Shown: positions 45,466 through 64,000 of the stretch, one piece after another
How positions within the stretch are numbered: position 1 is the first letter of the stretch
Layout: the number at the start of each line of letters is the position of its first letter
Source: Tubulanus polymorphus
Taxonomy: Eukaryota; Animalia; Nemertea
Reading direction: 5' to 3'
Assembly (NCBI RefSeq): GCF_964204645.1
Contig: NC_134033.1
Span: forward strand, 4,550,231 to 4,614,230
Length of the DNA stretch: 64,000 nt
Program-made: the position numbers and the translations under genes
The notes under the pieces: generated by a model
What the model saw: only the letters and a program-made list of their open reading frames with translations
The model's database searches: none
Told to the model about the DNA's origin: nothing

Positions 45466-45937
45466 AGAGAATAAATTGAAACTAGAATATAAGGATGATA
45501 TATTAGAAACTAAATTAGAAGAATTAAAGAATGAAAAAGAAACATATAAATGTGATACATGTAATCAATCATTCAGTGATAAAAGATATTATAAAGAACA
45601 TTTAAAATCTATAAGTCATATTAGAAATAAGAATAATGATATTTTAGGTGAAGATTATTTTGATAATGATAACGATAAGAAACAGAAGACAATTTAAAGA
45701 ATAAAAAATAAATTAAACAATAAAAGACCATACATGGAAGATGTAAGAAATTATATTAATTCATTAGATAATAAAAAAGATATAGAGATAACCGAAGCAT
45801 TTAAAAGTGATATTGGTCCAGCAGCTATCGAGTTTAAATTTCATAAAGGTAAAACATTAGAAGAAAATAAAAAACATTTAGAAAATATGAAAGAAATAAT
45901 AAAAATAATTACAGATGTTGAAACATCCCAAAAATAG
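45377..45937 (+). pseudogene. Disrupted N-terminal zinc-finger region of the pPolB gene
   Basis: Two C2H2-like fingers (CPTC..H..H, CDTC..H..H); ORFs 45377..45697 and 45734..45937 share a frame separated by one TAA; frame change near 45922. Confidence 0.7.
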
Positions 45938-48906
45938 AAAGAGATAATAATATAAAGATAAATGTATTTGATTTAATCAAATTACCAAATACAAAAGGAA
46001 ATAATATTAAACATTATACATTAGAACCTTTATACCTATCAAAAGATTATGATTCAAACGATGTTATAGATATACTATATTATGAGAATCATTATATGTG
46101 GATTAAACAAATAGATTTATTTTTCAAATCAGAAAATGATCACCATAAAATATATCTATGTAGAAAATGTTTACATAAATTTAGTAATGAAAGTACATTA
46201 TTAAATCATAAACAACTATGTGATAATCATGATTATTGTAAATTAGTTTTACCAAATGAAAAAGATAAAATATTAGAATTCAAAAAATATGATTACAAAA
46301 ATAAAGTACCATTTATAATATATGGAGATTTTGAATCATTAAATAAAGAATTAACTGATCAAGATAGAAAAGATATATATTATAAAAGAAAGAAATTAAA
46401 TTCTAATGAAAGTGATTATTCAGAAGAACCACCAAAAACAAATACTATTAAAAAGATTCATCAATCAGCTGCAGCTTTCGGGTTATATATAAAATCTAAT
46501 TATCCAGAACTAATCGAAAGTGAATATTATAATTATAGAAATGAAAATGTTATCAATCATTTTTGTGACTTATTAATTGAATATGAAATAAGATTTAGTA
46601 AATTATTGAATACAAATAAAGAAATAATTATGACAGAAGAAGATAAAGAAGAATTTGCGTTTGCAGATAAATGTTATTATTGTGAAAAGATATTTAATTA
46701 TAAAGATAAAAAAGTAAGAGACCATGATCATTTGAATGGAAAGTTTAGAGGCGCTGCACATGAGAATTGTAACTTACAAGCTAAGAAAATTAATTTTGTA
46801 CCAGTTATATTTCATAATCTATCAGGATATGATGCACATTTATTTATCAAACAGTTATGTTATAAAATAGAAGAAATCAATAATGAAATAGAAATATTAA
46901 ATTCAAATAGATCAAAAGATAAAATACCAACTTATAAATTTAAAATGTTAGCTAAAACATCTGAGAATTATATATCATTCCAATTTGGTTGTTTAAGATT
47001 TATAGATTCATATAGATTTTTAAATAGTTCATTAGATAACTTATCTAAATCATTAGTTGATGATGAATTAAAGATATTAAAAGAATATTACCCAAATTAT
47101 GATGATTTTAAATTAATGAGATATAAAGGAGCAATTCCATATTCTTTCTATAAAAATCATAATGATTTTAAAATAACTGAATTATTGAAAGAACAATTCT
47201 ATGATGAATTAAAAAATGAATATGTTAAAGATGAAGTTTATAATAGAACATTGAATATTTGGAATCATTTCAAAATAGAAAATCATGGACAATTAGTAGA
47301 TTTATATTTAAAATCAGATGTATTATTATTAACCGATATATTCGAAAGGTTTAGAGATGTAAACCTAAAATATTTTAACATTGATCCATGTCATTGTTAT
47401 TCATCACCAGGATTAACATGGGATTGTGGTTTAAAATTTACAGATATAAAAATGGATTTGTTAACAAATATAGATCAATTACTATTATTTGAAAAATCTA
47501 TAAGAGGAGGTGTTTCAGGTGTATTGGGTGATAGATATTTCAATGTAAATGATAATCCTGGATATAAATTATTATACATAGATGCAAATAATCTTTATGG
47601 TTGGGCAATGATGGAACCACAACCTTATGGGATGTTTGAAATAACTGAAGTTTTACAAATTGATAAATTTGATTGGAAGAAAAGAATCCTAGATATTGCA
47701 GATGATTCAGATATTGGTTACTTCTTTGTTGTAGATTCAGAATACCCTGAAAATATTAAATTCAAATCTAGAAATCTAGCATATTGTCCCGAACATAAAA
47801 CTGTTAAACATGAAGAATTATCAAATTATCAAAAAAGAATTAAACCCGATAATCATATTCATACTGAAAAGTTAATGGTAACTCAAGAAGATAAATATAA
47901 TTACGTTGTGCATTATAGAATGTTAAAATTCTATTTGAATCAAGGAATGATATTAAAAAAAGTACATAGATATATTTCATTTAATCAATCTAAGTGGTTA
48001 GAAAAATATATAGATTTTAATACTACACAGAGAACTAAATCTAAAACTGATTTTGAAAAAGATTACTTTAAACTAATGAATAATGCGTTCTATGGAAAAA
48101 CATGTGAAAACATAAGAAATAGAAGTGATATTGAGTTAGTTAGTAATGGTAAAAGGATAAGGCATTTACAATCGTATCCGAAATTCATAGGTAACAGAAT
48201 ATTTGATGAAAATTTAGCAGCAGTTAAAATGAGAAGAACAAGTATGAAATTTAATAAACCAATTTATGTTGGTGCATCGGTTTTAGAGTTATCAAAGCTA
48301 TTGATGTATAAATTTTATTATAACATATTACAACCCCATTTTGGAGAAAAAAATATAGAAATTCTATACTTTGATACAGATTCTTACATATTAAAGATAA
48401 AAAGTGATAATATAAAAGATGATTTAAAAATATTAAATCATCATTTCGATTTTAGTAACTATCCAAAAAATCATGAATTGTTTAGCAATGATAATAAAAA
48501 AGTTCCAGGGAAGTTTAAGGATGAATTAGGTGGTGAAGAAATGATAGAGTTCATTGGTATTAGATCTAAAATGTATTCATATAAAACTAAAGAACATGAA
48601 GCTAAAAAGTTAAAAGGAATAACCAAAAATGTAGTAGAAAAGAATATTCATTTCAAAGATTACATCAATTGTATATTTAATGAAGAAGTTAGAAAACATA
48701 AAATGAAATGTTTAAGATCTGAAGATCATGAAATGTATATTGAAGAGATAGAGAAGATAAGTCTAAACCCATTTGATGATAAAAGATATATTTTAGATGA
48801 TGGAATCCACACAGTCGCCTATGGTTGCAATTTAGATGAATATATAAAATTCAAAAGAGAAGAAACAAAAGAAAATGAAATTATGAAAAGGATTCTAACG
48901 TGTTAA
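45922..48906 (+). CDS. polB: Protein-primed-type family B DNA polymerase with inserted HNH/EndoVII domain
   Basis: ExoI YGDFES, ExoII FHNLSGYD, ExoIII YLKSD; Pol motifs YIDANNLYG, KLMNNAFYGK, YFDTDS; insert CYYC..VRDHDH..FRGAAHENCN. Frame is open from 45922 (IPKIERDNNIKINVF...HYMWIK), first ATG at 46096. Confidence 0.95.
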   Translation, partial: NIPKIERDNNIKINVFDLIKLPNTKGNNIKHYTLEPLYLSKDYDSNDVIDILYYENHYMWIKQIDLFFKSENDHHKIYLCRKCLHKFSNESTLLNHKQLCDNHDYCKLVLPNEKDKILEFKKYDYKNKVPFIIYGDFESLNKELTDQDRKDIYYKRKKLNSNESDYSEEPPKTNTIKKIHQSAAAFGLYIKSNYPELIESEYYNYRNENVINHFCDLLIEYEIRFSKLLNTNKEIIMTEEDKEEFAFADKCYYCEKIFNYKDKKVRDHDHLNGKFRGAAHENCNLQAKKINFVPVIFHNLSGYDAHLFIKQLCYKIEEINNEIEILNSNRSKDKIPTYKFKMLAKTSENYISFQFGCLRFIDSYRFLNSSLDNLSKSLVDDELKILKEYYPNYDDFKLMRYKGAIPYSFYKNHNDFKITELLKEQFYDELKNEYVKDEVYNRTLNIWNHFKIENHGQLVDLYLKSDVLLLTDIFERFRDVNLKYFNIDPCHCYSSPGLTWDCGLKFTDIKMDLLTNIDQLLLFEKSIRGGVSGVLGDRYFNVNDNPGYKLLYIDANNLYGWAMMEPQPYGMFEITEVLQIDKFDWKKRILDIADDSDIGYFFVVDSEYPENIKFKSRNLAYCPEHKTVKHEELSNYQKRIKPDNHIHTEKLMVTQEDKYNYVVHYRMLKFYLNQGMILKKVHRYISFNQSKWLEKYIDFNTTQRTKSKTDFEKDYFKLMNNAFYGKTCENIRNRSDIELVSNGKRIRHLQSYPKFIGNRIFDENLAAVKMRRTSMKFNKPIYVGASVLELSKLLMYKFYYNILQPHFGEKNIEILYFDTDSYILKIKSDNIKDDLKILNHHFDFSNYPKNHELFSNDNKKVPGKFKDELGGEEMIEFIGIRSKMYSYKTKEHEAKKLKGITKNVVEKNIHFKDYINCIFNEEVRKHKMKCLRSEDHEMYIEEIEKISLNPFDDKRYILDDGIHTVAYGCNLDEYIKFKREETKENEIMKRILTC

Positions 48907-48934
48907 TAAATTTCAATAAAAATTTGTATAATAA

Positions 48935-49276
48935 ATGGAGAGTAAACAAGTACACAATGAATTCTTAGATAGAATTAAAGATACCACAAATGTAAAATCT
49001 GTAGATTATAAATTCAAAAAGTTAACAGAATTAACAATTCACAAGAAATATTTAATTACAAATATTGTTACAGTTACTAACAAATATGGAGATAAATTAG
49101 TAATTCATTTAGAATATGAAGGATTAAAAGGAAATAAATATAAATTCAGAACTTATTTACCAGATAGATTTCATAGATTATCAAGTGAAGATCTAGAAGA
49201 ATTATGTTCTGGAGATTTCTATTTCGTATACAAAGGTAAGAATGAAAAAGGGCACCATGAAATAGATTTCGAATAA
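48935..49276 (+). CDS. Small beta-rich protein, possible OB-fold ssDNA-binding protein
   Basis: FKKLTEL..KY.I....NKYG....YLPDRF...FVYKG pattern; immediately downstream of pPolB. Function inferred. Confidence 0.55.
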   Translation: MESKQVHNEFLDRIKDTTNVKSVDYKFKKLTELTIHKKYLITNIVTVTNKYGDKLVIHLEYEGLKGNKYKFRTYLPDRFHRLSSEDLEELCSGDFYFVYKGKNEKGHHEIDFE

Positions 49277-49293
49277 GAAAATATGTAAAATAA

Positions 49294-50052
49294 ATGGCGG
49301 AATTAAAAGAATACAGAATATTTATAGATTCTAGAAGGCTTACAAATTATAAATCACATAATTTACTAGTACAATTAGACAGAGAATTTAAGAATTGTGT
49401 AGATTTAAAATTAGTAAATATAAGTTTATGTAATTCTTTTTACAATGTATCGGATAAGTCTATTGAACATAGAGTCTTTTTAATTCATGATAGAAATAAA
49501 AGTAAATGGTTTCATCTTTATCTTAAACCAGGATTATATAATTTAGAAACATTAGCTCGAGAAATTAATAGAAGAGCTCGGTTGAAAATGGGTGCACCTG
49601 CTGGATTTGGATTAAGACTGATTAAAAGTGATAGTTCTGATAAAATAAGAATAAAATTAGGTAATGAAGATCAACATCAATTTCTAGTTAAAAAACCCTT
49701 AGCTAAAATTTTAGGAATAACCCCAGATGTAAGGATACGCAATGCTGATGCTACACCAAATATAATGCCTTTTACACATTTTTATATTTATTGCAATTTA
49801 ATCGATCCTACAAAAACATTCGAAGCAACTAAAGATATAACTTGTAATTCTGGTTTACTAAACATTTTACCATTGAAGAATGTTAAAGAATTTGGAACGC
49901 AAATAAATTATAATTTAACAGAATGTGATTTCAAACCATGCATTCCTCGTTTTAATAATTTTAGATTAGAAATTAGAAATCATAATGGATACTTAATTGA
50001 TTTAAATAACTTTCCTGTAATTTATGAATTAGTTATAAGATGTAAAGAGTAA
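49294..50052 (+). CDS. Probable minor capsid (penton, single jelly-roll) protein
   Basis: IFIDS, NSFYNV, PGLYN, YIYCNLI and FRLEIRNHNG.LIDLN pattern typical of Polinton/PLV pentons. Confidence 0.75.
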   Translation: MAELKEYRIFIDSRRLTNYKSHNLLVQLDREFKNCVDLKLVNISLCNSFYNVSDKSIEHRVFLIHDRNKSKWFHLYLKPGLYNLETLAREINRRARLKMGAPAGFGLRLIKSDSSDKIRIKLGNEDQHQFLVKKPLAKILGITPDVRIRNADATPNIMPFTHFYIYCNLIDPTKTFEATKDITCNSGLLNILPLKNVKEFGTQINYNLTECDFKPCIPRFNNFRLEIRNHNGYLIDLNNFPVIYELVIRCKE

Positions 50053-50068
50053 TTTTTTCACTATATAA

Positions 50069-50410
50069 ATGAATATAACTGTTGGACCGAGTATATGTTT
50101 TGGGTTTGATTTTAAACATGGTAAAGAAATGAGAATTAAACTAAATGATGTAATTACTGATATAAAAAGTAAATCATTTAACAATGCATCAATGATTGAT
50201 AAAGAAAATTATAATATAGAAAAAGTAATTGATTTAATTAAATCACCTTTAGAATATTATGAATTAAATGAAGATGGAATTATTGATGATATTAAAAACA
50301 TATTATCCAAAATATATGATAATCATAAAACTAGTAATGAAATAAATGTTGAAATAATCATAAATAAGTTAACTAAATATTTTGATGATAGTAATTTTTT
50401 TGATAAATAA
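50069..50410 (+). CDS. Hypothetical viral protein
   Basis: Intact, tightly packed ORF with TAAATG start. Confidence 0.7.
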   Translation: MNITVGPSICFGFDFKHGKEMRIKLNDVITDIKSKSFNNASMIDKENYNIEKVIDLIKSPLEYYELNEDGIIDDIKNILSKIYDNHKTSNEINVEIIINKLTKYFDDSNFFDK

Positions 50411-50632
50411 ATGAGTGATAATAAGTGGATAATAACTGGATTATATAATGGCGCATTACTATCAGTTGGAACTGTTGGTTATTCAATGGTATTAAAAAAA
50501 GTATTCAAAATGGGAAGTGTTAATGTTGATAGATTTGATATAAATGATATTTTAAAGTTAACATTAGCAGTTACTTTATCTAATTTAACTATTGATTATT
50601 TGGAAAAACAAAAATATATTCCTCCCATATAA
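50411..50632 (+). CDS. Small hydrophobic protein
   Basis: Two hydrophobic stretches; TAAATG start. Confidence 0.7.
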   Translation: MSDNKWIITGLYNGALLSVGTVGYSMVLKKVFKMGSVNVDRFDINDILKLTLAVTLSNLTIDYLEKQKYIPPI

Positions 50633-50656
50633 ATGCATAATTTTTTTGTTAAATAA

Positions 50657-51079
50657 ATGGCTTCTGCAATTATAACTATTATAGGATCGGCAATTGTTAA
50701 CGCTTTAGCATTTACTGGTGGTGGATATTTATTTAAACATATTGATAAAAATAGTTCATTAGGAGAACAAAGAAGACATAACTTAGCGTTAGAGAAATAC
50801 AATAAAGCTGCAGAAGAATATAGAGAAAAAAGACAAAACTATATGGATTACATCAATAAAGAATTATATGATCAGAAGATTTCACATAGAGATTTTCAAT
50901 CAGTTGATGATGCAATGAGTTTATATAACGCAGTAACAAATAAAGAAAAATTACATCTATACAAACCTAAATTATCAGATTATTATACCCCGAGTAAAGA
51001 ACAACAGAAATATGAAATAATTTGGATTTTAGGTGGAACAGTTATTGTTATATTTGTTGCTTATAAGTTTACTAATTAG
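50657..51079 (+). CDS. Membrane protein (hydrophobic N- and C-termini, helical middle)
   Basis: N-terminal IIGSAIVNALAFTGG; C-terminal IIWILGGTVIVIFVAY; TAAATG start. Confidence 0.75.
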   Translation: MASAIITIIGSAIVNALAFTGGGYLFKHIDKNSSLGEQRRHNLALEKYNKAAEEYREKRQNYMDYINKELYDQKISHRDFQSVDDAMSLYNAVTNKEKLHLYKPKLSDYYTPSKEQQKYEIIWILGGTVIVIFVAYKFTN

Positions 51080-51098
51080 TAATTTTTATTCTAAATAA

Positions 51099-51533
51099 AT
51101 GGAAGATAAAGTTGATAGTATTGATATTATTCCTCATGATATAAATAAAACTAAATTAAAAACATATTTAGAAAAACAAATATTAGAATTTGAAAGTGAC
51201 TTAAAGATAAAAAAGAAAAAATATTTAAAAAGTAAAATTATATATTATTTGATTATAAGTGGTTCGGTTACAATTAGTTCTGTAATAACATTTCTAGCAA
51301 TATTTAGTCCATTAACACCTTTAGCTATATCAATTGGTGTATTAGGATTAAGTTCAAGTGTTTTAACTGGTATAAGTTCAAAATTAAATATAAAAAGTAA
51401 TAAAGAAAAAATCAAAACTAATATAAAAGAAATTAATAAATTAAAGAACACACTAGATTATATAATAAGTTTAAATGGTCATATAACAGTTGAAGAACAA
51501 GATAAATTATTAAAAGAATTAATAAATTATTAA
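51099..51533 (+). CDS. Two-TM membrane protein
   Basis: Central paired hydrophobic helices flanked by Lys-rich helices; TAAATG start. Confidence 0.75.
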   Translation: MEDKVDSIDIIPHDINKTKLKTYLEKQILEFESDLKIKKKKYLKSKIIYYLIISGSVTISSVITFLAIFSPLTPLAISIGVLGLSSSVLTGISSKLNIKSNKEKIKTNIKEINKLKNTLDYIISLNGHITVEEQDKLLKELINY

Positions 51534-51549
51534 TTTTTTAATTATATAA

Positions 51550-52851
51550 ATGGGGTTTCCAAAAGCTTTCCAATATAATAAATCAATTAAATATAATGTT
51601 CCGGCAATAGATTTTAAGAAAAATATTACATATAAAAATATAGTTTTAAATTCATTAACTAATTTAGAAATTTATGTTAATGAATCACAGTTTTTTATTT
51701 CTAAAATGGAAAATATATTTAATACATATGAAGTTACTTTTACTCGAGATGAATATCATATATATAAAGTAAAATCTAATATGAAATATTGGCAGAATCA
51801 ATTAAATTTTGCTGTTTATTGTGCAACAACAGGATGTGGAATAAGTTGGAATGATCATTTAAATAACTTAGATAAAAATTTGAAGTATTCTGATTTAAAA
51901 TTAATTCACACAATATTTAGATTTCACACATATTTTCAAATCAGAATAATATTAAATGAATTAGAATGTCCTTTACCCGGGTCTAAATATTTTAAAGAAT
52001 TGGATAATAATATTAATATATCCAAGTTTTATAAAATATGTAATGAATTTAATATAAATATTAATTCCGATTTTAGAGCGCATGGTAAATTGCAAGGTGT
52101 TGGTGAAGAGTTTGAAATAAAAAGAATTGATTATATGCATAGAATTGGAGCTTATCATAATTATAAAATTGATAATAATAATGGTTGGGTTAATTTCATT
52201 TTAGAAAATGGTGAAGGTTTTACAAAATCAGGTATACAAAGAATAAATCAATCTATTAGAATTTATTTGATATGTATTTTAGGCGCTCAAGTTGAAACAA
52301 GATCCCAAATAATTGGAAATGATAACACTTCATTCGATGCGCAGAAACAGTTTAAAGTTTTATTTGAAGATTCCATACATGATGATAAAAATAGATCGAT
52401 TCCAGAAAACATTATAAGATATCAAAATTATTTAGATAAATCTCATGTAAGACTTAATTATTGTATAGGCCCTAATCTATTAATTATTTCTAATGATTTA
52501 GTATTGAAGATGGGAAACATAATTGGTTATAATAATATAATTAAAACTGCAACAATAAATAATTCATTTGGATTGAATGATATAAATAAAAAGATTATTA
52601 CTGCTCCAAAATTAATGGAAGGTGAAAAAAATAAAAAACACATTCAATCAACAGAAACTAAAACTAAGAATATTAAATTAAATAATGATTCTAAAATAAA
52701 AGATTACAATACATCAGAAAATATTAGAACTGATAAAATTCAACATGATATAATTAAACTAAATGATGATAATAAATCACATGAAAATACTAAATTAGCT
52801 ATAACTTGTATAGGAATTGTAATCGGAGGAATATTATATTTTAAATTTTAA
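51550..52851 (+). CDS. Hypothetical protein with C-terminal TM anchor
   Basis: 433-aa intact ORF; WQNQLNFAVYCATTGCG block; C-terminal LAITCIGIVIGGILYF. Confidence 0.8.
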   Translation: MGFPKAFQYNKSIKYNVPAIDFKKNITYKNIVLNSLTNLEIYVNESQFFISKMENIFNTYEVTFTRDEYHIYKVKSNMKYWQNQLNFAVYCATTGCGISWNDHLNNLDKNLKYSDLKLIHTIFRFHTYFQIRIILNELECPLPGSKYFKELDNNINISKFYKICNEFNININSDFRAHGKLQGVGEEFEIKRIDYMHRIGAYHNYKIDNNNGWVNFILENGEGFTKSGIQRINQSIRIYLICILGAQVETRSQIIGNDNTSFDAQKQFKVLFEDSIHDDKNRSIPENIIRYQNYLDKSHVRLNYCIGPNLLIISNDLVLKMGNIIGYNNIIKTATINNSFGLNDINKKIITAPKLMEGEKNKKHIQSTETKTKNIKLNNDSKIKDYNTSENIRTDKIQHDIIKLNDDNKSHENTKLAITCIGIVIGGILYFKF

Positions 52852-52867
52852 TTTTTTTATTATGTAA

Positions 52868-54329
52868 ATGGATGTAGAAGGTGGAGAAGATTATGAAATG
52901 GGAGAAATGGGAAATGATAATGAAGGATATATTGATGATGATTATAATGATGCAGAAACTAATATTGATAATGATGATGAATCAGCATATAATTCTAATT
53001 TAGCAGATAGTGGTTCTAAAGGTCAATCAACAGATGAATTTGATAGAAGAACTAGATCGAGAATAAATCCTGAAAATGAAAATCCAGATTTAGTAAAACA
53101 AAATTTAGAATATAATGAATATATTTATAATTTCAAACCTATATTTGAAAAATCTGGATATGATATATATGCTAGAGGCGCCAGACTTTTAGTACAAGAA
53201 TTAAAATCTTTAGATGGTGAATATTATTATCGTTTGAAAGATGATTATTATATTGATATCTCTTATAAAAAACAAAACAAAATATTAGCAGAATCAACTT
53301 TGCTTAAGTCTGACTCATTACTATCTAGAATTAAAAGAATAAGAAATAGTAATGATATAGAAGATGTAACACAAGAAGAAATTATTAAAAATGAAAGAGT
53401 ATTTAAACAAAGAATTAATGAATTATTTGAAACAATCAATAATAATTTAGAACCAGAAACAACTTCTGAACAGAATATAACTTCCAAAACTAGTAAACTT
53501 AAATCAAACACTGAAGTTCAAACTGAAAAACTTTTACCGAATGGATTACTTGATGCAACAGATCAAGAAATAGAAGCTTTAAGAATGTTTTCTAAAAAAA
53601 CAATTAGAGAAATAATAAGTATACGAAATGATGCCGATAAAATTGCTCGCGAAAAACATATTAGATATAATAAAATTAAACCTTTAGAAAATAAATTATT
53701 TGACACCAGAAAAGAATTAGAACAATTAAAATTAGATAGAGAATTTAAAGTTATTGAAGAAATTGAATTTAAAAAAAAGAAATGCATATTTAGAAAAAGA
53801 AATTGATGATTTAGAATATAACATAGAATTTCAGAAAGAAAAAATGAAATTATTATTAAAATCATACGATTATTGTATCAATAGATTAAAAGTTGTTGTT
53901 AAAGAGTTAATACTAAAACCAAATTCTGACATATCATTGAAAGATAGAATAAAATTATTATTTAAGTTTGAAGGAATAACAGTTCTTTCAATTCTAACAG
54001 CTGTAACTATGTTATTTACAACAATTGGTTTAGCAATATCAAATGCTTTGAAATCTACTCCTACTCCAAATAAACCAGATAAACCTCCAGGTAATAATTC
54101 TATACAAGATAAAGTTAAAGATGGTTTAAAGAAATTAGCAAAATATTTATGGGAACTATCAAAGAAATCTGCTGCAGCACTACCAGGAGTTATTGCTTCA
54201 ATTGTTGGTTTTATATTGAAATCTGCAGGTAATATTCTTAACTTTGCTGCTGAACATATTATTTTATTTTTAATCACAGTTGTAAGTGCTATTATTTTTG
54301 GGTTAGTAAACATGATAAAAAATAAATAA
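52868..54329 (+). CDS. Coiled-coil protein with hydrophobic C-terminal helices, split by one extra A
   Basis: ORFs 52868..53806 and 53754..54329 fuse (EFKKRNAYLEK) if one A is removed from the A8 run at 53771-53778; the second ORF lacks its own ATG/TAAATG. Confidence 0.7.
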
Positions 54330-54349
54330 TTAATTTTTTTGTTAAATAA

Positions 54350-55597
54350 ATGAGTGGGAGTTATATAAATCCTTCTAAGATTTCTAGAATATCTAATGCT
54401 ATTAAAGCAGAAAGATCACATCATATAATTACTCATAACCCTTCAAATATTAATCCCGATGAAACTTTATACGTTAGAATTCCGAGATTAACACAAAATA
54501 CTTTTTATGTTCCAAACAGTATTTATTTATCAGCTGATATAAAAGTATCTCGTAATAATAATAATTATGTCGTTGATAATGTTGGAAGATATTTGATTAA
54601 AAAGTTAACAATAAAGATTGGTCCGGAAACAGTTTTCTCATTAGATGATTATAATTTATTTATGCATTATAAAGATTTATGGTTAACAAAAGAAAATAGA
54701 AATAATATGATATTTCAAGGCATCCAATCAGAAAACCAAAATAAATTAAGATCAGAAGCTAATAGCGCAATATTAACTAATGATGTAGATAAATTGATAA
54801 AAAGTATATATGGAAGCAAATATAAAATTCCATTAGACTTTGAATTGATAAATAATAATGCACCTTTATATAAATACGCAATTCAAGAAGATATTATATT
54901 TGAGATAACATTTGCTCCTGTAAATGAAATTGTAATATCTAGCGTTAATAAAGATATGAGTTATAAATTATCGAATATATGTTTAGAATATAACACAGTA
55001 ACTAATGAAAATATTGCTAGCACAATTCAAACTCAATACAATCAAGGATTTTCATTATTATATGATTATATTGATAAATTTAAAACTGTAACTATTAATG
55101 CAAATGATGAAATAATAAATGAGAATATTAACTTTCCTAGAAGATCTATTAAAGGTATATTAATATTTTTTACTATTGGAACATATACTAATGGTGCAAT
55201 AAATGTTGACAATTATTATAATCCTGAAATAACAAAAGTAGAAATAACTATTGAAGGAATAGCGAATAAAATATTTTGTCAAGGAATGAGAATGATAGAT
55301 CAATGGGTAGAAATTAAAAAACATTTTATGAATGAAAAAGTAAAATCATTTGAAAATTGTAACATTAATCAAATTGACTATTATACCGGTAATAAATTTG
55401 CATTATGGTTAGATTTTAGAACAACTGAAGATAATTCATTACATGGTTCTGGAAAAAAACTACAAAACACTAAAGATGGAATACAATTATTCATGACAAA
55501 GAAAAAGGGAATCAAAAATTTTAAAATGCACATTTATATTATATCTGACGCGCAATTAAATATTATAAATTCACAATTAGATAGTGTTATGTATTAA
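54350..55597 (+). CDS. Probable major capsid protein (double jelly-roll)
   Basis: 415 aa, beta-rich; IPLDF, YKLSNICLEY, INENINFPRRSIKGILIFF, FALWLDFR, YIISDA; size and position fit a Polinton MCP. Confidence 0.8.
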   Translation: MSGSYINPSKISRISNAIKAERSHHIITHNPSNINPDETLYVRIPRLTQNTFYVPNSIYLSADIKVSRNNNNYVVDNVGRYLIKKLTIKIGPETVFSLDDYNLFMHYKDLWLTKENRNNMIFQGIQSENQNKLRSEANSAILTNDVDKLIKSIYGSKYKIPLDFELINNNAPLYKYAIQEDIIFEITFAPVNEIVISSVNKDMSYKLSNICLEYNTVTNENIASTIQTQYNQGFSLLYDYIDKFKTVTINANDEIINENINFPRRSIKGILIFFTIGTYTNGAINVDNYYNPEITKVEITIEGIANKIFCQGMRMIDQWVEIKKHFMNEKVKSFENCNINQIDYYTGNKFALWLDFRTTEDNSLHGSGKKLQNTKDGIQLFMTKKKGIKNFKMHIYIISDAQLNIINSQLDSVMY

Positions 55598-55629
55598 AAT
55601 TTTAACTTTAATAAAAATGTATATAATAA

Positions 55630-56571
55630 ATGGAAGGAGGTAAAGTATATAAACATATTCCATACATCGATACACATGAAAATAATGATGGTTTATATTA
55701 TGTAATACCTTGTAATATAGCTTTGATATTTGATCCTATTTTTAAAAATTATAAAACTAAACTGATAGAAATCAATAATAATAAAAGTGGTGTTGTTAAT
55801 GATAGTGTAATTGATAATAATGTAATACCTACTACACCTGTAATACCTACTACTACATCTGTAATACCTACTACTACATCTGTAATACCTACTACTACAT
55901 CTAATAACGTAATACCTACTACATCTGTAATACCTACTACATCTAATAACGTAATACCTTCTACATCTAATAATAAAATAATATTAGATGTTAGTGAAAA
56001 TAGAAATTATTGTGGTTATTGTAATGGTGAATTTTCAAACGCTCCATCAAATTGGAATAAACATATGAATACAAATTCACATATTACTAATGTTATAGAA
56101 CGTGTTGGTTTAAGAGAATTTATAGAACACCCATTTAGATATGTTACAAAGTTTGTTTCAAATAAAAAAGTAAATGGTGAAAAAATATATGAAGATTTAT
56201 TATTAGCAACACCTAATAAAGATGAATTAGATTTAACTGATGCTAATGAAATATTAGGATCAAACACTGTAAATGAAATATTAGGATCAAACACTAATAA
56301 AGATGATAATGAAAATGATGCCATACACCCACATGATGATATAGTTACAGTTAAACATATTTATATTAAAGATTCTATGAAACATAAAGAAGAAACTATT
56401 GATGATATGATAAAAAGGATCAATAAGCGTAACAATGAAACAACTATTGGTGGTGTGGTAAAAAAGGCGAAAAAGGTGAAAAAAAATTATAAAGATGTTG
56501 AAGAAGATACGGTAGAGTATTTGAATATGTTGTTAGCGTCTGATAGTGAAAGTGATTCAGAAATTGAATAA
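55630..56571 (+). CDS. Hypothetical protein with VIPTTTS repeats and a C2H2-like finger
   Basis: gtaatacctactac repeats at about 55820-55970; CGYC...WNKHMNTNSH. Confidence 0.7.
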   Translation: MEGGKVYKHIPYIDTHENNDGLYYVIPCNIALIFDPIFKNYKTKLIEINNNKSGVVNDSVIDNNVIPTTPVIPTTTSVIPTTTSVIPTTTSNNVIPTTSVIPTTSNNVIPSTSNNKIILDVSENRNYCGYCNGEFSNAPSNWNKHMNTNSHITNVIERVGLREFIEHPFRYVTKFVSNKKVNGEKIYEDLLLATPNKDELDLTDANEILGSNTVNEILGSNTNKDDNENDAIHPHDDIVTVKHIYIKDSMKHKEETIDDMIKRINKRNNETTIGGVVKKAKKVKKNYKDVEEDTVEYLNMLLASDSESDSEIE

Positions 56572-56640
56572 TAAAGGTTGAAAATTGTATAAAATAATAG
56601 TAAATAAAAAAAGGGTTTTAATTATTTAAGGTATCTAATA

Positions 56641-56710
56641 GGGTATCAGGTATTAGGGTATCAGGTATTAGGGTATCAGGTATTAGGGTATATAATAGGG
56701 TATCTAATAC
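56641..56710 (+). repeat. 15-bp tandem repeat (GGGTATCAGGTATTA)x3 plus two variants
   Basis: Directly visible, at the junction of the convergent gene blocks. Confidence 0.9.
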
Positions 56711-56726
56711 ATAGGTATACAAATAG

Positions 56727-57338
56727 TTATTTTATAAATTTATATTCATAAGGAAATTGTAATCTCAGTAATAATTTTGAACCTTTATTATTTTTTAATT
56801 TATTCATATATTCATCATGTAATTCAGGAGGTATAATTTGATTTTCTTCCAATGATTGTTGCATAGATTTTCTATCTTTGTTGTAGAATAAAACTAGAAA
56901 TCTTATATTCTCTCTAAAATCTTTAACAATTGAATTATATTTCTGATTTAAAACCCATGTTGTTATCCCAAAATGTCTACCAGAGAAAGCTAAATAACAT
57001 AACTCACTTTCTCTAATTTTAGAATCATGTAAATTTGCGCAATCATCGATAATAAATAATGTATTAGATCCTTTATAAATATCTAATACAATTTTTATAC
57101 AATTATCTAAATTTTCTTTTACTGTTTTAGGGTCTAATATAATAAACTTTTTTATCTTAACTATATCTCTATTATATGTTTTATTCGTTTCATATGTAGG
57201 ACAGAATAATATTATATTATCAAAATGATTTTTATAAATAGTTTCTAACAAATCTAATATGAAATGTGTTTTACCACAATTTGTAACTCCAATAACTAAC
57301 ATATTATGTGGTTCAAATATAAATAAATCTTTATTCAT
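56727..57338 (-). CDS. A32/FtsK-like genome packaging ATPase
   Basis: Walker A GVTNCGKT, Walker B LFIIDD, GRH arginine motif, downstream Q..IVKDFREN. Confidence 0.92.
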   Translation of the reverse strand: MNKDLFIFEPHNMLVIGVTNCGKTHFILDLLETIYKNHFDNIILFCPTYETNKTYNRDIVKIKKFIILDPKTVKENLDNCIKIVLDIYKGSNTLFIIDDCANLHDSKIRESELCYLAFSGRHFGITTWVLNQKYNSIVKDFRENIRFLVLFYNKDRKSMQQSLEENQIIPPELHDEYMNKLKNNKGSKLLLRLQFPYEYKFIK

Positions 57339-58419
57339 TTATTCTTTTAATTTTACTAGATAAAATCCATTCATTAAATTTATCATCATATCCTTTATAT
57401 TTCACCAAAGAATACTTTTTTCCTTTAAGAGTTTTTGTTTTCAATACCTTTTCTATTTTGTATTCTATTTCATCTGGATTTGGTACTAATGATAATTCTT
57501 GTTCATAAAAATAACCTAATATTTCTTCATCTTTTAAATCAAACAATTTATAAACAAATGGTTTAGTTAATATTATCTTTTTAATTTTGAATATTTCTTC
57601 TGTAAAATTAGGGGTATAACCTTTATAAAATGTTTTTCGATATTTAGAAATTCTAACGTGTTGTCCTATTTTAAATTTAGGTTCTCCAAAATCATGTGTA
57701 ACAAATGCTCCATATAAATTATTCCAAACTATTTCTGAATTTTCTTCTTTTCTAGCTTGTATAGGTTTCATATTTATAGAACTATGTTTAGAATTATTAT
57801 AACCTTTAACTAAATCATCTAACACATCGATATATTTATATGTTTCATTAGCAGTAAAATATTTCCACATTCTAGTTTTCAATGTTTTATTAAATCTTTC
57901 TATAACAGATGCTTTTTTATCTGAATGTGTTGAAAAATATTCTACTTCGTTATCAGATAATAGTTTTTTAAAATGTTTGTTATAAAATTCTTTACCTTCA
58001 TCAAATTGTATTTTATCTGGAATAGCTTCTTTAAATATGGATTTAAAAGCATTTGTAACTTCTATTCCAGTTTTATTTTTAATCGGGATACTCCATGCGT
58101 ATCTACTGAATATGTCTATAACATTTAGTATCCAAAAATATCCTTTGTTATATTCTTCTAAGTTTTTCATGTCAATTAAATCTGCTTGCCATTGTTGATC
58201 GATATATGAAACCATTACTTTTCTTGTTAAATATTTTTTATCCATCTTTTTATGAATTTGATATGTGGGTTGATTTTGTAACCATGATTTTAATTCACTA
58301 TATTTTATATTGCTATTATCGGATTTAATTTTATTCCATAATTCTGAAACGTTAGAATATGAAACTTCACTTTCTGGGTTATAATATAAATCTCTTAAAT
58401 ATTGTTCTTTTTTCATCAT
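57331..58419 (-). CDS. int: Retroviral-like (rve) integrase with C-terminal chromodomain
   Basis: WQADLID, VIDIFSRY, IQFDEGKEF and VIERFNKTLK (DDE); IEKVLK...LVKYKGY...NEWI chromodomain. Confidence 0.96.
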   Translation of the reverse strand: MMKKEQYLRDLYYNPESEVSYSNVSELWNKIKSDNSNIKYSELKSWLQNQPTYQIHKKMDKKYLTRKVMVSYIDQQWQADLIDMKNLEEYNKGYFWILNVIDIFSRYAWSIPIKNKTGIEVTNAFKSIFKEAIPDKIQFDEGKEFYNKHFKKLLSDNEVEYFSTHSDKKASVIERFNKTLKTRMWKYFTANETYKYIDVLDDLVKGYNNSKHSSINMKPIQARKEENSEIVWNNLYGAFVTHDFGEPKFKIGQHVRISKYRKTFYKGYTPNFTEEIFKIKKIILTKPFVYKLFDLKDEEILGYFYEQELSLVPNPDEIEYKIEKVLKTKTLKGKKYSLVKYKGYDDKFNEWILSSKIKRINE

Positions 58420-58422
58420 ATT

Positions 58423-58797
58423 TTAATCCATTAATAATATTTTAGATTTATTTTCATTTGATTTATTTTCTGGTATAATAGGTTTATTGTCTGTACATGG
58501 ATAACTAAGTTTCCGATCATCTTTATCGTCAGATTTGAATTTTGATTTATATATTACACCGGATAATATAATAATTGTGATTAACCCAATTGTAATATAT
58601 AAGTAATTATTTCTTCCACTATTAGAAGAATTAGATGGATTATTATTTGAATCAATATCAGATAATTTCTGTGATTCATTTATATCAGTTAATTTCTTTT
58701 TCTTAGCTTTTTTTAATTCTGATGATCTTTTACCTAATTCTCTTGCCCATTTAATTTGTTTCTCGGATCTAGCCTTTTTCTTAACTCCATCACTCAT
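58423..58797 (-). CDS. Basic single-pass membrane protein
   Basis: Lys-rich N-terminus and one TM segment; TAAATG start. Confidence 0.7.
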   Translation of the reverse strand: MSDGVKKKARSEKQIKWARELGKRSSELKKAKKKKLTDINESQKLSDIDSNNNPSNSSNSGRNNYLYITIGLITIIILSGVIYKSKFKSDDKDDRKLSYPCTDNKPIIPENKSNENKSKILLMD

Positions 58798-59395
58798 TTA
58801 TTTTAGTTAATTTTTGTTCTGATTCATCTTCTGTTTCGTGGTTTGGTTGTAGTACATCTGTTTCGTTCTTACCTGATTTATATTCCATAGGTTTGATGTT
58901 CGAAAATGTTATAACTCCAGTAGAAATCAATGTCATAACCGATCCTAATTGAAATGAAGCATATCCAACCCATTTTTGTAATTCAGTCATAACTAAATAG
59001 TCATTTTTCAAATCATTATATAATTTATTTTCATCATCAATTGGTATTAGCCGGTTACATAATTTTGAATAACATTTGATAATACCATCACTTATAGAGT
59101 CGTTTATTCTAGCTAATCTTGACTCTTCATAAATCTTAAAATATTTGATTACTTTTTCTTTATTCATATTATCTAATTCTTGAAAAGTTATTGTTTTACC
59201 AATAAACTCTTTAGTTTTTCCACTCGCAATCAATAGTTCTAGATGATGTTTACAATATAAATAGTATTCATAATCAATATTACTATCAATTTTATTATCA
59301 CATTTAGTTGCCACATTATCATTATCATCTGTTAAACCTAAATCTTCCAAAGTTTTTTCAACCTTAATATTATTCTTATTCGATTTCTTAGACAT
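58790..59395 (-). CDS. Hypothetical viral protein
   Basis: Intact 201-aa ORF with TAAATG start; overlaps the next gene by 8 bp. Confidence 0.7.
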   Translation of the reverse strand: MSKKSNKNNIKVEKTLEDLGLTDDNDNVATKCDNKIDSNIDYEYYLYCKHHLELLIASGKTKEFIGKTITFQELDNMNKEKVIKYFKIYEESRLARINDSISDGIIKCYSKLCNRLIPIDDENKLYNDLKNDYLVMTELQKWVGYASFQLGSVMTLISTGVITFSNIKPMEYKSGKNETDVLQPNHETEDESEQKLTKINE

Positions 59396-59619
59396 TTATA
59401 TTAGAGAAATTTAATAAGAATAGTATTATAAGTATTCTTCAAATGATACTAGCTAGTTAAAGTTAAAGAATTCTAGTATTAGTTATTTTTTTTTAGTATT
59501 TTTTATTTGTGATATAAAGTATTCTTTTTTGAAAAGAAAATATTAAAAATTAAAATAGAAATAATGTCTAGTTGAAGGTATGTAATTTTTATTATATTTT
59601 ATTTGAGATATATTATTCT

Positions 59620-60288
59620 TTAACCACTCATTAAAGACTCAACGTATTGTTCATTATTTGGATTATTATTCCATAATTCAATAAATTTCTTTGCTTTTGT
59701 TAACCGTTCTAAATATAATTGTAAATCTAGTTTATTAGATTTGATTTGATTTTCTTTCTTTTCTAAAGGCCTTAGATTCTTCCAATTCCAAATAAGTTTT
59801 TTATTATATTCATCATTCATGTTAAATTTAGATATTGGTAACACGTGATCAATGTGGTAATAATCCCCATAATTATCTATATTCATTTTATCATCGAATT
59901 GAAATATTATCCATGATTTGAGAAATTCATCTGAACAACCCAACAAATTAGATAGTGTTTCTGAATGTGTTTCTTTGTTGAATAATTGTGTTAATCTAGT
60001 CCTTAAGCATTGTTTCAATCTAAAATTAAGATCTGTTTGATATCTTTCTCTCATATATTTTGTCATATAATAATTATAATGTTCTATATTATCTTCTCGA
60101 TATTGTTTGGTGTATAGTTTAGCACAAGTTTTACAACAATTTTGAAAACCATCTTTGCTAATCTTACGCTTACTAAATTCTGTTATAGCTAATTTATTTA
60201 ATTCACATTTAGAACACTTCTTGTAATATATGTTTATAACGCCAGTGTTATTTGTAATATTGATAATTTGTGGTTGTTCTGGTTCCAT
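59620..60288 (-). CDS. Zn-ribbon plus HNH endonuclease of the type common in large DNA viruses
   Basis: CSKC...CKTC; LGCS; NYG.YYHIDHVLP...NLRPL...N..KSNK. Confidence 0.85.
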   Translation of the reverse strand: MEPEQPQIINITNNTGVINIYYKKCSKCELNKLAITEFSKRKISKDGFQNCCKTCAKLYTKQYREDNIEHYNYYMTKYMRERYQTDLNFRLKQCLRTRLTQLFNKETHSETLSNLLGCSDEFLKSWIIFQFDDKMNIDNYGDYYHIDHVLPISKFNMNDEYNKKLIWNWKNLRPLEKKENQIKSNKLDLQLYLERLTKAKKFIELWNNNPNNEQYVESLMSG

Positions 60289-60429
60289 TTATTATACGTA
60301 TTTTTTTACTAAATTGGTTAATAATTTTAGAATCCTCTTCCATTTCTCCGACTAACGTAATCCTTTTTCATTCCTCGCTGTTTTTGATAAGTCAGTTTCG
60401 ATTCCTTGATATCTAAATAATACCACTGG

Positions 60430-60900
60430 GCAAAACCGCTCTTATAGGAGCGCTTTTGCTTAATGCGCATGCGTTAATCATAATTATATATTCATTCTGT
60501 AAATTCTGTAAAATAGAAACGACTGACATAAAATATCAAAACGTGTTCGCACTAAGCAAAACCGCTCTTATAGGAGCGTTTTTGATCAATGCGCATGCGC
60601 TAATCATAATTATATATTCATTCTGTGAAATAGAAACAACTGAACATAGAAAATTCAAACACATATGCACTAAGCAAAACCGCTCTTATAGGAGCGTTTT
60701 TGATCAATGCGCATGCGCTAATCATAATTATATTTACATAATGAATATATAATTATGTAAATAGAAACGACCGACATAAAATATCAAAACGTGTTCGCAT
60801 TAGGCAAAACCGCTCTTATAGGAGCGCTTTTGCTTAATGCGCATGCGTTAATCATAATTATATATTCATTCTGAATAGAAACGACGGAACATAAAAATTC
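60430..60900. repeat. Four ~120-130-bp tandem repeats with palindromic cores
   Basis: Units start at 60430, 60556, 60674 and 60804; core gcaaaaccgctcttataggagcg(c/t)ttttg followed by tgcgcatgcg. Confidence 0.95.
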
Positions 60901-60987
60901 ATCAATCAGATTTACACAATACATTATACAAGTTGTTCGGTCGTTGTATTGACAAAATTTATATTTTCAACTAATACATTATTTTAT

Positions 60988-61764
60988 TTATAATTCCAAC
61001 CAGAACTTTTCAATTTCTGGATCATTGTCAAACATTTTTTCAATATCGTTTAAATATTTTACTATATCAGAAAATGACAAACTTAAAAATTGGAATCTTT
61101 TATATGTAATTAATCTCCCTACACTTCTTAATTTTCTTTCATACTCAGCACTAATACCTATATATTTTTTAACCCAAGAAGTCCAAGAAATCCCCGCAGT
61201 TTGTTTATTAAACATTAAAAATCCCCTATTTAAACAATCCCCGAAAATGATATAATCCCATAAATGCTTTGCCTTTTTGAATAACAAGGTCCTATAATTT
61301 TTTTTCAATAAAACAGTTATTTCATTAAATGATGTTATACCTTCTATTTCTTTAAAACTTACATCTTTTTCAATTGATAATTTTGATTTTAAAAACTTAT
61401 TTAACTCATTTCCGCTCATTTTCTTTTTAGTTTTTGTTCCTTTTCCTTTTAGTCTTAACAATATTTCTACATTGGTTGTTGGTCTTTTCGGTAATGATGT
61501 TACACTTGATTGCTGGTTTTCTATAATTTTTTCTAAAATTAATGTCATTTCTTGATGGTAATATAAATGTTTTTTAACTTCTTCTAACGTTTCATCTTCT
61601 ATATCGAAAGATTCTTTTACTTCAACACCCATTTCGATTGGTTCATATTCCATTTCGGTTGGTTCATATTCCATTTCGGTTGGTTCATCTTCCATTTCGG
61701 TTGGTTCATCTTCTATTTCGGTTGTGCTCTGAGAATCAAGAGTACTTCTTGATACACACGACAT
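60988..61764 (-). CDS. Hypothetical protein with 7-aa acidic repeats
   Basis: E(D/Y)EP(T/I)EM repeats encoded by 21-bp units; first ATG at 61764 in TAAAATG context. Confidence 0.7.
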   Translation of the reverse strand: MSCVSRSTLDSQSTTEIEDEPTEMEDEPTEMEYEPTEMEYEPIEMGVEVKESFDIEDETLEEVKKHLYYHQEMTLILEKIIENQQSSVTSLPKRPTTNVEILLRLKGKGTKTKKKMSGNELNKFLKSKLSIEKDVSFKEIEGITSFNEITVLLKKNYRTLLFKKAKHLWDYIIFGDCLNRGFLMFNKQTAGISWTSWVKKYIGISAEYERKLRSVGRLITYKRFQFLSLSFSDIVKYLNDIEKMFDNDPEIEKFWLEL

Positions 61765-62580
61765 TTTATTCAACTAAAAGATATCAGCGGTAGAACAGGA
61801 ACCGCGATATTATATGATATAAATATTTTCAAGTCTATCGTTTCTAATTATTATAACTTATTATAGTTCAAGTTATTATCTATCTAACGTAAAATAGAAT
61901 TAACTGTATGAAGTTGTAGTTGTCAAAAGCACTTAAAGGTTTCATATTTAATAGCCTTAATAACTACAACAAACAGTACTTACATTTAGATTTATAATTG
62001 TAAACTATAAACTCCTAATTTCGTTTCGAAAGATAGAATATCCTGAGCACAATATTACAGCGTATATCCATTTCCGGGGCGATTTCTAGAATGACACGTC
62101 GTTAATTATGCTACGTCATCTAGTTCCGGTTCTAGAGTGTTCTCTCTCTGCACCTGATTATGACGTGTAATAATGTCTCGTCGTTATAGTAACAACTGTA
62201 ACAGCTGTGAATTTATAGATTTATTCTATGGCTCTGTACATTGAATGTATATAGGCTCAAATAGAATCATGTTCTAGTATAAACATCTAGAACAAGCGTG
62301 TTGAGACTTGTAAATTATGAGATTTGTGATTCGCTACGTTCGCTGTATACACAACGTGTTGAAGTTGAAAAAAAAAATAATAAAAGCATTTAGATTAATG
62401 AAATTAATTAACTCTTTACAATTGAAATATAAGCTGGTAACATATGTTTACTAGAGCTAATACAACCAACTATATAGCTGAGTATTATCGGGTGTTTATA
62501 ACGATTCAACATATTTTTCGCCATGTGTTGAGTTCCTTAATTCGATAAATGTCTTTGCTTTAAACAACTGGACTAAAAAC

Positions 62581-62752
62581 AAATGTGTTATAGTTTTATT
62601 GTGTCTTGCTTTTTGAGACTTGTCTATATCGATATTACATGTTGGGCAGTAGTATTTATTTGCTTCCATTTTAATACTATTTTTTTTATTAAAATTGATT
62701 TTAGAAGTTCAATGATTTAAATATTATTCATATATATGTGAATATTTTTAAG
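62581..62752 (-). repeat. Right subterminal inverted repeat
   Basis: Reverse complement of 45297-45465. Confidence 0.95.
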
Positions 62753-63158
62753 AGTAATAGGGATAATGGGCTTTCGGGTTAAAGGTTTAATGATTGAGTT
62801 CATTAATAACATATATTAAAAGTAATTAAAAAACTATAATATATTTTCATAACCGCGTGTATTTCGGTTGAATAATAGAATAATTATTATCATTTGAATA
62901 TATTTGATTATTTGAATTTGTGTATTGTAATTAAATCAATTGGTCGCGGAGCGGAGCGGTGGCGAAGCGGAGCGACCAATTGATTTAATACAATATGCAT
63001 TTAAAATTATTGATATCTTAGAATAAATATTTAGTTTTGATATAAAATGCATGCGGTTATGAAAATATATTATAGTTTTTTAATTACTTTTAATATTTTG
63101 TTTTTTAATGAGCTCGACCTTTCGACCTTTGATCTGAAAGCCCATTATCCCTATTACT
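62753..63158. repeat. Right terminal fold-back palindrome (406 bp)
   Basis: agtaatagggataatgggctttc...attaaatcaattggtcgc [loop 62948-62971] gcgaccaattgatttaat...gaaagcccattatccctattact. Confidence 0.95.
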
Positions 63159-64000
63159 ATTATCGAAAGGTTTCAATAACCATTTAAGCGATTGAATATA
63201 AGTAATTTCATTTCTGGTCACCAGTGGTTTGATAACTTTAAATGCGTCGTGGTCCATTGTCAGTATAGCGCCATATTGATGACGATATTGAAATTTGTTG
63301 ATCAGATTTTTCATATCACTTTCTATATTGAAGTTGATTCTTACTATTTCGGCGCGGATGCTGTGACACATTTCTCTAGCACTCCGAATATTCAAACCTC
63401 GATTGTTTTTCCAGTCTGTTAGTATTTGATAACATTGTCCGGTAATAGTTACCAAACCTCTTGGACAGGTTGAATTAATTAAAGTAACATCGGGAATCAT
63501 TTGATCTATTGTTTTATTCAAGCTTGTATTTGTTGAATTGTTCGCATCGTTTATCTTTAAATCGTTTTTGAAGTCGATTCTCTCAGATTCACAAATGAAT
63601 GTCGTGTGCGTCTCTTCGATTTGACACGGGAATCGAACCCAGTTCGCTGATCCTCGTGGGTTATTCAGTATCATCGCCGTACACGGCATATTGACGTCAT
63701 TTATCGGTTGTTTTCTTAACGGAGATATCAATCCTCGAATAACTTCTGGTATCGTTTCATTAATAACAGGTTTATACCACTCTGTGTAGCTCAATGGTTT
63801 ACCGTCAGTCCACGTGTAATAACCATCATTCTGTTTCGTGAAGAAAATTAAATATATCACTTCTTTAAAAATCTTTCGATTATAATTCATATTGGAATAC
63901 ATTAGTCTTACCTTCCATTTTAATCCAATCATCATTATGAGCGCTTTTAATGAGTACGCCATTCGGAGAAGTTCTGTAGCGAATAATCTTTTGATGGAAA
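63159..64000 (-). pseudogene. Receptor copy C, upstream part (C-type lectin region); continues beyond the window
   Basis: Aligns with about 33810-34660 of copy B. Confidence 0.93.

Follow-up and report, generated by a model that had tools for sequence, protein, structure and literature searches.

A cluster of GCGNAGC heptamers as the probable apex of a single-stranded 3'-end hairpin in a Polinton of Tubulanus polymorphus

The genome of the nemertean Tubulanus polymorphus carries, within a 64,000-nucleotide (nt) stretch of contig NC_134033.1 (positions 4,550,231 to 4,614,230; hereafter, the window), a Polinton/Maverick element whose right end contains a cluster of GCGNAGC heptamers. The original prediction, made from the sequence alone, had proposed that two of these heptamers form the ears of a Y-shaped single-stranded DNA structure. 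Here, we describe the element, its ends, and their counterparts in distant Polintons, and we find that the cluster is probably the apex of a long Polinton-end hairpin that would be formed by a single-stranded 3' end, with an unbranched rod preferred to a Y at its tip.

Results

The element and its terminal hairpins

The principal features of the element are as follows.

45104 to 45109, plus strand: target-site duplication ATTATC, left copy, 6 bp
45110 to 63158: Polinton/Maverick element, 18,049 nt, beginning AGTAATAGGG and finishing CCCTATTACT
45110 to 45296, minus strand: left terminal fold-back hairpin, 187 nt, best fold on the minus strand
45198 to 45209, minus strand: left tip, in which a tandem GA/GA adjoins the stem and is followed by two pairs and a 4-nt loop
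46096 to 48906, plus strand: open reading frame (ORF) of the protein-primed DNA polymerase B (pPolB) with an Endonuclease VII insert (PF03175, E 1.7e-14)
56727 to 57338, minus strand: A32-like packaging ATPase (Pox_A32, E 1.2e-11)
57331 to 58419, minus strand: retroviral-like integrase (rve) with a chromodomain (rve E 2.4e-9)
62581 to 62738, minus strand: inner part of the terminal inverted repeat (TIR), 158 nt, 99% complementary to 45308-45465
62753 to 63158, plus strand: right terminal fold-back hairpin, 406 nt, with inner arm 62753-62947 and outer arm 62972-63158
63159 to 63164, plus strand: target-site duplication ATTATC, right copy, 6 bp

The element, which has a GC content of 24%, combines the features by which Polintons are recognized: pPolB, a retroviral-like integrase, a packaging ATPase, and TIRs with a target duplication in the 5-8-bp range. 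Its terminal 10-mer occurs four times (45110 plus, 45296 minus, 62753 plus, and 63158 minus), and therefore each element end is a hairpin in itself. Among the raw reads of run X5, 2049 diverge from the reference after 63158, and since their agreement past this position is low (0.34), they represent many insertion sites and mark the true end of a multi-copy family; 919 reads of the same run diverge from the reference ahead of 62581.

Both ends of the element are imperfect palindromes, paired as far as the last base, with fold z-scores of -17 to -21. The outer arms of the two ends are alike at 46 of 51 positions and each matches its own inner arm at 42-43 of 51, while the arms of each end share end-specific upper stems. 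At the right end, 23 perfect pairs reach the last base of the element, the plus strand is rich in G·T pairs, and the folding energy is -111 kcal/mol on the plus strand compared to -99 on the minus strand. This end has the geometry of a primer-template junction, with the final base engaged in a pair and the opposite strand continuing into the genome. The left hairpin also has 23 perfect terminal pairs; its minus strand forms five G·T and five G·A pairs with no A·C or C·T and folds at -80.7 kcal/mol, compared to -69.2 on the plus strand. As had been noted, the left loop is without the heptamer, yet a tandem GA/GA lies next to the stem on the minus strand, and a second one is found lower down the stem. 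At both ends of the element, the better fold belongs to the strand that terminates there with its 3' end. The original assignment of the structure to the plus strand holds for the right end only; the left end favors the minus strand, so that the rule concerns the 3'-terminal strand rather than the plus strand.

The GCGNAGC cluster at the right tip

The apex of the right hairpin is made up of the following features.

62946 to 62952, plus strand: GCGGAGC overlapping the stem
62948 to 62971, plus strand: purine-rich tip (24-nt loop), mirror-symmetric about 62958-62961
62951 to 62957, plus strand: GCGGAGC, proposed ear 1, wholly inside the loop
62956 to 62963, plus strand: central cap, in which 62961 is A in most reads, giving GCGGTAGC (GCGNNAGC class)
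62962 to 62968, plus strand: GCGAAGC, proposed ear 2, wholly inside the loop
62967 to 62973, plus strand: GCGGAGC overlapping the stem

We recovered the sequence of 62941-62978 and all four plus-strand heptamers (GCGGAGC at 62946, 62951, and 62967; GCGAAGC at 62962) as originally reported, with the copies at 62951 and 62962 lying wholly within the loop. The loop reads GC GGA GC GGA GC, a 4-nt center, and GC GAA GC GGA GC. The window contains eight GCGNAGC matches (shuffle mean, 5.1), four of them at the tip; elsewhere in the 18,049-nt element, neither strand has a further match. When the loop was shuffled within its fixed stem (200,000 trials), two disjoint ears arose at a frequency of 7e-5 and four heptamers in no trial. 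TRF scores the tip at 35 as a degenerate run of the pentamer GCGGA, and since the heptamers are overlapping registers of one such run, they represent one feature and not four independent events.

At position 62961, A is present in 1183 of 1364 reads (87%), and this is the sole tip position among the 40 variants listed of 304. Since the GCGGTAGC center overlaps both proposed ears, the central cap and the ears are mutually exclusive. Mean read depth is 1416 at the tip, compared to 1338 and 1437 in the flanking bins of the arms, and therefore most copies retain the tip. A few reads jump it, with joints from 62936 to 62991 (14 reads) and from 62909 to 62993 (6 reads); these represent either deleted copies or a polymerase skipping across the hairpin.

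The best ViennaRNA fold of the tip is an unbranched rod with two 3x3 loops, at -8.5 kcal/mol compared to -5.3 for the Y, both without a mini-hairpin bonus. By this modeling, the tip likely folds as a rod with GGA/GGA and GGA/GAA internal loops or, alternatively, as a Y with two ears. GGA facing GGA constitutes a guanine zipper, a motif of the purine strand only (PMC11014236, in part). The GGTA cap is GNNA and not GNRA as in RNA, and the GCGNNAGC class comprises octamer mini-hairpins named in the accessible part of PMC13037366, where RNA versions of these mini-hairpins are described as far less stable than the DNA forms.

Hairpin ends in distant Polintons

An alignment search with pPolB yielded 109 loci, of which 32 are viral and 77 come from genome bins; the latter appear to be eukaryotic contigs inside prokaryotic bins. 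In eight of the 109 loci, a stem of at least 16 bp lies upstream of pPolB. The hairpin-ended relatives are as follows.

G001:C67 3805-23212: complete element, hairpin at both ends
G001:C9 291-15427: complete element, hairpin at both ends, TAGGAA on each side
G001:C9 169-282, G001:C50, L133, L084, L080, and L082: single hairpin ends

All three complete hairpin-ended elements, the window element included, encode pPolB. Perfect pairing extends to the last base for 11-28 bp in all 10 ends measured, and hairpin length ranges from 114 to 406 nt. The tips of the relatives are rods without branches, marked by tandem G·A pairs or by GAA caps. Four relatives retain a tandem GA/GA beneath differing caps (AAG, GAA, TTT, and GAG), with a compensatory change of GC/GC to GT/AC among them, and the L133 tip is a stack of three G·A loops. 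Between L084 and L080/L082, the GAA apex is retained, the closing pair is altered, and 6 of 41 stem pairs have changed on both sides. GCGAAGC is found in one of the six hairpin types outside the window (G001:C9), once per end, where it can equally be read as part of a GA/GA rod; two heptamers are found in none of the six. Thus, the expectation that GCGNAGC would be conserved at the tips of relatives fails for the exact two-ear motif but is borne out for the one-strand chemistry of sheared G·A pairs.

Binding or nicking by the HNH nucleases of the element had also been put forward for testing. We found no support for a dedicated role of these nucleases, since one complete hairpin-ended element gave no Endonuclease VII match, an element that lacks an end hairpin did give one, and a standalone HNH-like ORF was undetected in the hairpin-ended loci searched. 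In the pPolB of the complete G001:C9 element (L225:5485-9321, minus strand), there is no Endonuclease VII match and a VSR-like stretch can be recognized by eye, so that either nuclease type may accompany end hairpins.

In a pPolB tree built by a quick method, the three distinct hairpin-ended polymerases present in it fall in separate places, and therefore no hairpin clade is shown. Scans of viral contigs with the window pPolB, the terminal 19-mer, and two capsid alignments gave no matches, and 24 metagenome loci with close capsid relatives included no termini. Pattern scans for end motifs 100-130 nt apart (20 and 38 loci) returned one locus of 58 that folded below -30 kcal/mol; the best three loci had no pPolB match and were dismissed as chance or unrelated.

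Several arrangements among these loci deserve mention in their own right. In G001:C9, the complete hairpin-ended Polinton starts 8 nt beyond the terminal hairpin of a different Polinton family (169-290), which hints at insertion beside existing ends. The G001:C67 element (L145) has an internal tandem duplication of ~4.7 kb covering the integrase and part of the polymerase. At L133:8424-9696 (G002:C67), a bacterial operon for carbamoyl-phosphate synthase directly borders the end hairpin and a pPolB-like ORF, which points to chimerism of the contig or, with lower probability, to an element inserted in a bacterial chromosome. The unit at G001:C19 134867-135365, 499 nt in length, has Polinton-type ends and inverted arms of 73 nt and may be a miniature element that is non-autonomous. 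Finally, at L041:4657-4840, the genes for integrase and polymerase are separated by a strong hairpin that favors neither strand and in which the order of the Polinton end motif is reversed.

Non-canonical pairs lie on the strand with the terminal 3' end

To compare strands, we relied on position (the partner repeat, homology of the inner repeat, or the direction of the polymerase) and never on mismatches to tell which strand is 3'-terminal; for L133, L084, L080, and L082, the terminal position was itself inferred. The tally weights all mismatches equally and covers eight hairpin types, two from the window and six from elsewhere, with the second ends of the two complete relatives left out as duplicates. 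L080 and L082, whose outer arms are cut by contig starts, stand outside the tally, as do hairpins with no placement at a Polinton end: L041:4657-4840 (three G·T vs three A·C), L068:8046-8213, G001:C19 134867-135365, L031, L065, L120, L124, and L132.

Across the eight types, the 3'-terminal strand forms 26 G·T pairs compared to 2 A·C and 33 G·A pairs compared to 6 C·T. The six types from outside the window give 8 G·T vs 0 and 19 G·A vs 3. In every one of the eight types, it is the 3'-terminal strand that carries the G·A/G·T face, and all 12 assembled ends have one polarity. The proposal of a strand-specific structure of single-stranded DNA is supported by this constant face and by the recurrence of GNA-type caps at the tips of relatives.

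Other genes and repeats of the window

Two more genes of the element were assigned without a Pfam match.

54350 to 55597, plus strand: putative major capsid protein, labeled from its size and context
59620 to 60288, minus strand: standalone HNH-like ORF, with the motif recognized by eye

The putative capsid ORF (415 amino acids) has 921 homologs. A scan of 18 of the ORFs of the element gave no Pfam match for a double jelly-roll capsid protein, a maturation protease, or an HUH nickase (NS1/Rep).

The 5' part of the pPolB gene (from 45377) is broken in the window copy by a stop at 45695-45697, so that region 45377-46095 is disrupted, whereas the remaining core ORFs are open. The nearest pPolB relatives are 78-80% alike and 1319-1365 amino acids long, with the N-terminal region present; the window protein has no counterpart of their residues about 187-353 (about 167 amino acids). 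In the relatives, the N-terminal region missing from the window pPolB contains terminal-protein and vOTU motifs, recognized by eye after the description of these Polinton pPolB motifs in the accessible part of PMC11161782. Judging from its sequence, the window Polinton is likely a non-autonomous copy.

An intergenic repeat array near the right end (60430-60901, units of 118/248 nt) has a GC content above its surroundings and contains short palindromes. Host ORFs near the element are of LDLa/LRR and lectin types, which would suit an invertebrate animal. Host segments that are 89-94% alike recur at window positions 13554-14128, 31206-31786, 42506-43082, and 43724-44851, and the segment beside the left end of the element is part of an LDLa/LRR receptor-like coding sequence.

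Discussion

Polinton replication has, to our knowledge, never been observed directly, and a single-stranded intermediate is a model. In adenovirus, protein-primed copying proceeds by strand displacement. An adenovirus-like process in Polintons would free one whole strand, whose 3' end could then snap back locally and rebuild a short duplex copy of the element end. Such a rebuilt end would shield against exonucleases and would offer a duplex to the polymerase and terminal protein, and perhaps to the integrase, with no pairing of ends 18 kb apart. The outer arm would be the part read in sequence and the inner arm its wobble-tolerant partner, while the G·T and G·A pairs would allow the single strand to fold yet leave the palindrome imperfect in double-stranded chromosomal DNA. 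We consider it likely, as judged from the compared ends, that the hairpins are a functional fold-back of the 3' DNA strand. Their role as a local duplex end for protein priming, argued by analogy, is a tentative proposal that falls somewhat short of an even chance.

Several observations weigh against this reading. The eight hairpin types represent about four lineages, with four types from one genome bin, and a sign test by lineage gives p = 0.125; in three types, the computed difference between strands is below 1 kcal/mol. The G·T excess taken alone could be attributed to deamination of an exposed strand instead of selection, although deamination could not account for the G·A tandems that have been kept and would in itself point to a phase of single-stranded DNA. 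A hairpin with a Polinton-type start was found upstream of pPolB in only 3 of the 109 loci, many of which are without upstream DNA. End hairpins are absent from three TIR-bounded G004 elements and from the one intact L027 end, and therefore they are not universal among Polintons. As for the apex, the energy gap in favor of the rod disregards mini-hairpin stability, and the GGTA cap falls outside the loops measured in the table of the accessible part of PMC13037366.

With respect to the apex, we moderately prefer a rod without branches, built of sheared G·A pairs and closed by a GNNA cap, to a Y. The competing structure keeps the same single-stranded hairpin and places two mini-hairpin ears on a three-way junction, where they would serve as a parvovirus-ear-like signal for protein binding or packaging, possibly with switching between Y and rod; we regard it as the minor candidate, with a chance well below even. 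The two disjoint heptamers in the loop, rare in shuffles, speak for it, as do the GCGAAGC on the 3'-terminal strand at both tips of the G001:C9 element and the finding that neither ear is altered among the 40 variants listed of 304. The comparison of rod and Y energies is weak because the stability of isolated heptamers exceeds nearest-neighbor models: isolated GCGAAGC melts at 76 C and GCGGAGC at 73 C (PMC13037366, in part). Also in favor of the Y, a switch to a mini-hairpin has been proposed for hairpin I of phage G4 (PMC13037366, in part). Nevertheless, two ears are found neither in the six types outside the window nor at the left end of the window element, a Y would leave unexplained three GNA/GNNA linkers that are paired in the rod, and the majority variant at 62961 favors the central cap. 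The two-ear Y of the original prediction is therefore retained here as the lesser reading of the tip.

Other accounts of the hairpins differ in what they ask of the 3' end. The fold-back 3'-OH could prime the second strand in parvovirus fashion, with a nuclease (the Endonuclease VII insert of pPolB or the standalone HNH) resolving the hairpin. The primer-template geometry of the right end fits this idea, the same model has been proposed for palindromes of protist virophages and PLVs (bioRxiv 10.64898/2026.07.28.741278, in part), and certain parvovirus ends exist in a single orientation (PMC8242256, in part). We nonetheless find self-priming doubtful, since resolution of the AAV type would flip the hairpin and yield more than the single polarity seen in 12 of 12 ends, no HUH/Rep match was found in the 18 element ORFs scanned, the presence of Endonuclease VII does not follow that of the hairpin, and the relatives retain the N-terminal priming region (motifs recognized by eye). 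A broader proposal, which is possible though not probable, is that a subset of Polintons are widespread adenovirus-like/parvovirus-like hybrid replicons with one-strand 3' hairpins whose G·A zippers could switch to ears, and whose ends would self-prime the second strand or supply the integrase with a duplex terminus that does not carry the 5' terminal protein. If true, this would answer how the elements integrate despite that protein, whose clearing ahead of integration is stated as unclear in the accessible part of PMC11161782. The hairpins might instead be functionless by-products, with palindromic ends arising from occasional snap-back repair and the tip from GCGGA slippage. The scoring of the tip as a 5-nt repeat, the range of hairpin lengths, and the several related elements without a hairpin would suit this explanation, but the read depth of the tip matches that of the arms, tandem G·A pairs persist as caps and stems turn over, and polarity is constant across the assembled ends, all of which make it improbable. 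Even less credible, in our estimate, is a role as RNA, such as transcripts that run outward from the ends or precursors of small RNAs. RNA, too, has G·U wobbles and tandem G·A pairs, yet an A-box/B-box pair is absent from both strands of eight ends, Rfam returned three sub-threshold hairpin matches and nothing more, the caps are GGTA, GAA, and TTT instead of GNRA, the genes next to the hairpins are encoded on the strand opposite to the one that folds, and pairing ends at the last base of the element. A look-up of sequencing runs containing the sequence, directed at DNA, returned no RNA run.

If the preferred reading of a 3'-strand fold-back with a rod-like tip is correct, the strand-polarized non-canonical pairs would be a sequence record of the single-stranded intermediate, and the ends would be natural examples of tandem-G·A and guanine-zipper DNA maintained across distant lineages. 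The hairpins also define short oligonucleotides (38-190 nt) for assays of priming, end protection, and integrase recognition, and they would connect the ends of Polintons with the hairpin telomeres known from parvoviruses and poxviruses. In the open-access literature, including the accessible parts of bioRxiv 10.1101/2023.08.22.554363 and PMC11161782, we found no report of polarized end hairpins, or of terminal palindromes, for pPolB Polintons; the accessible parts of 10.1101/2022.05.25.493380 and PMC11296320 do not address hairpins at Polinton ends. Strand-polarized fold-back hairpins with sheared-G·A tips would thus be a new form of Polinton end.

Among known elements, the window Polinton resembles the pPolB2-type Polintons, which have a nuclease-bearing pPolB (bioRxiv 10.1101/2023.08.22.554363, in part), in its HNH/Endonuclease VII insert, rve integrase, A32 ATPase, TIRs, and 6-bp target duplication. 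It differs in that each terminal repeat is a hairpin, 114-406 nt among the ends compared, with strand-specific G·A/G·T pairs; the string "palindrom" has 0 occurrences in the accessible text of that source. Halocafeteria virophages and PLVs have terminal palindromes, mostly with non-pPolB replication genes, for which hairpin priming has been proposed (bioRxiv 10.64898/2026.07.28.741278, in part). As in the window element, the palindrome lies inside the TIR and adjoins the target duplication, whereas the example given there is 52 nt long and the hairpins described here are longer, imperfect, polarized, and located in pPolB Polintons. The preference for non-pPolB replication genes does not extend to our complete hairpin-ended elements, and the accessible main text of that source makes no mention of strand polarity or G·A tips, although its supplements may list palindromic pPolB subtypes.

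The nearest structural analogue is provided by the left-end hairpins of the parvoviruses HBoV1 and MVM, which are Y-shaped with bubbles (PMC8242256, in part). These share with the Polinton ends a 3'-terminal imperfect hairpin with mismatches and, in some cases, a single orientation. In contrast to parvoviruses, the window element has no NS1/Rep nickase match among the ORFs scanned, its two ears are unconserved, and it is a Polinton of 18 kb that encodes an integrase and has a hairpin at each end; the flip and flop forms of the AAV type, which MVM-type left ends do not need, are likewise not seen among the assembled ends. The d(GCGNAGC)/d(GCGNNAGC) mini-hairpins of the phage G4 and St-1 origins and of N4 promoters (PMC13037366, in part) have the same heptamer and octamer, are strand-specific, and compete with a longer hairpin, but in the present case they would sit on top of a long stem at the terminus of a mobile element from an animal. 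Finally, the (GGA)2 guanine zipper of human satellite III hairpins (PMC11014236, in part) likewise has GGA facing GGA, an arrangement confined to the purine strand in which two sheared G·A pairs flank intercalated G's, whereas the spacers in the Polinton tip are GC/GC pairs and the zippers number only two.
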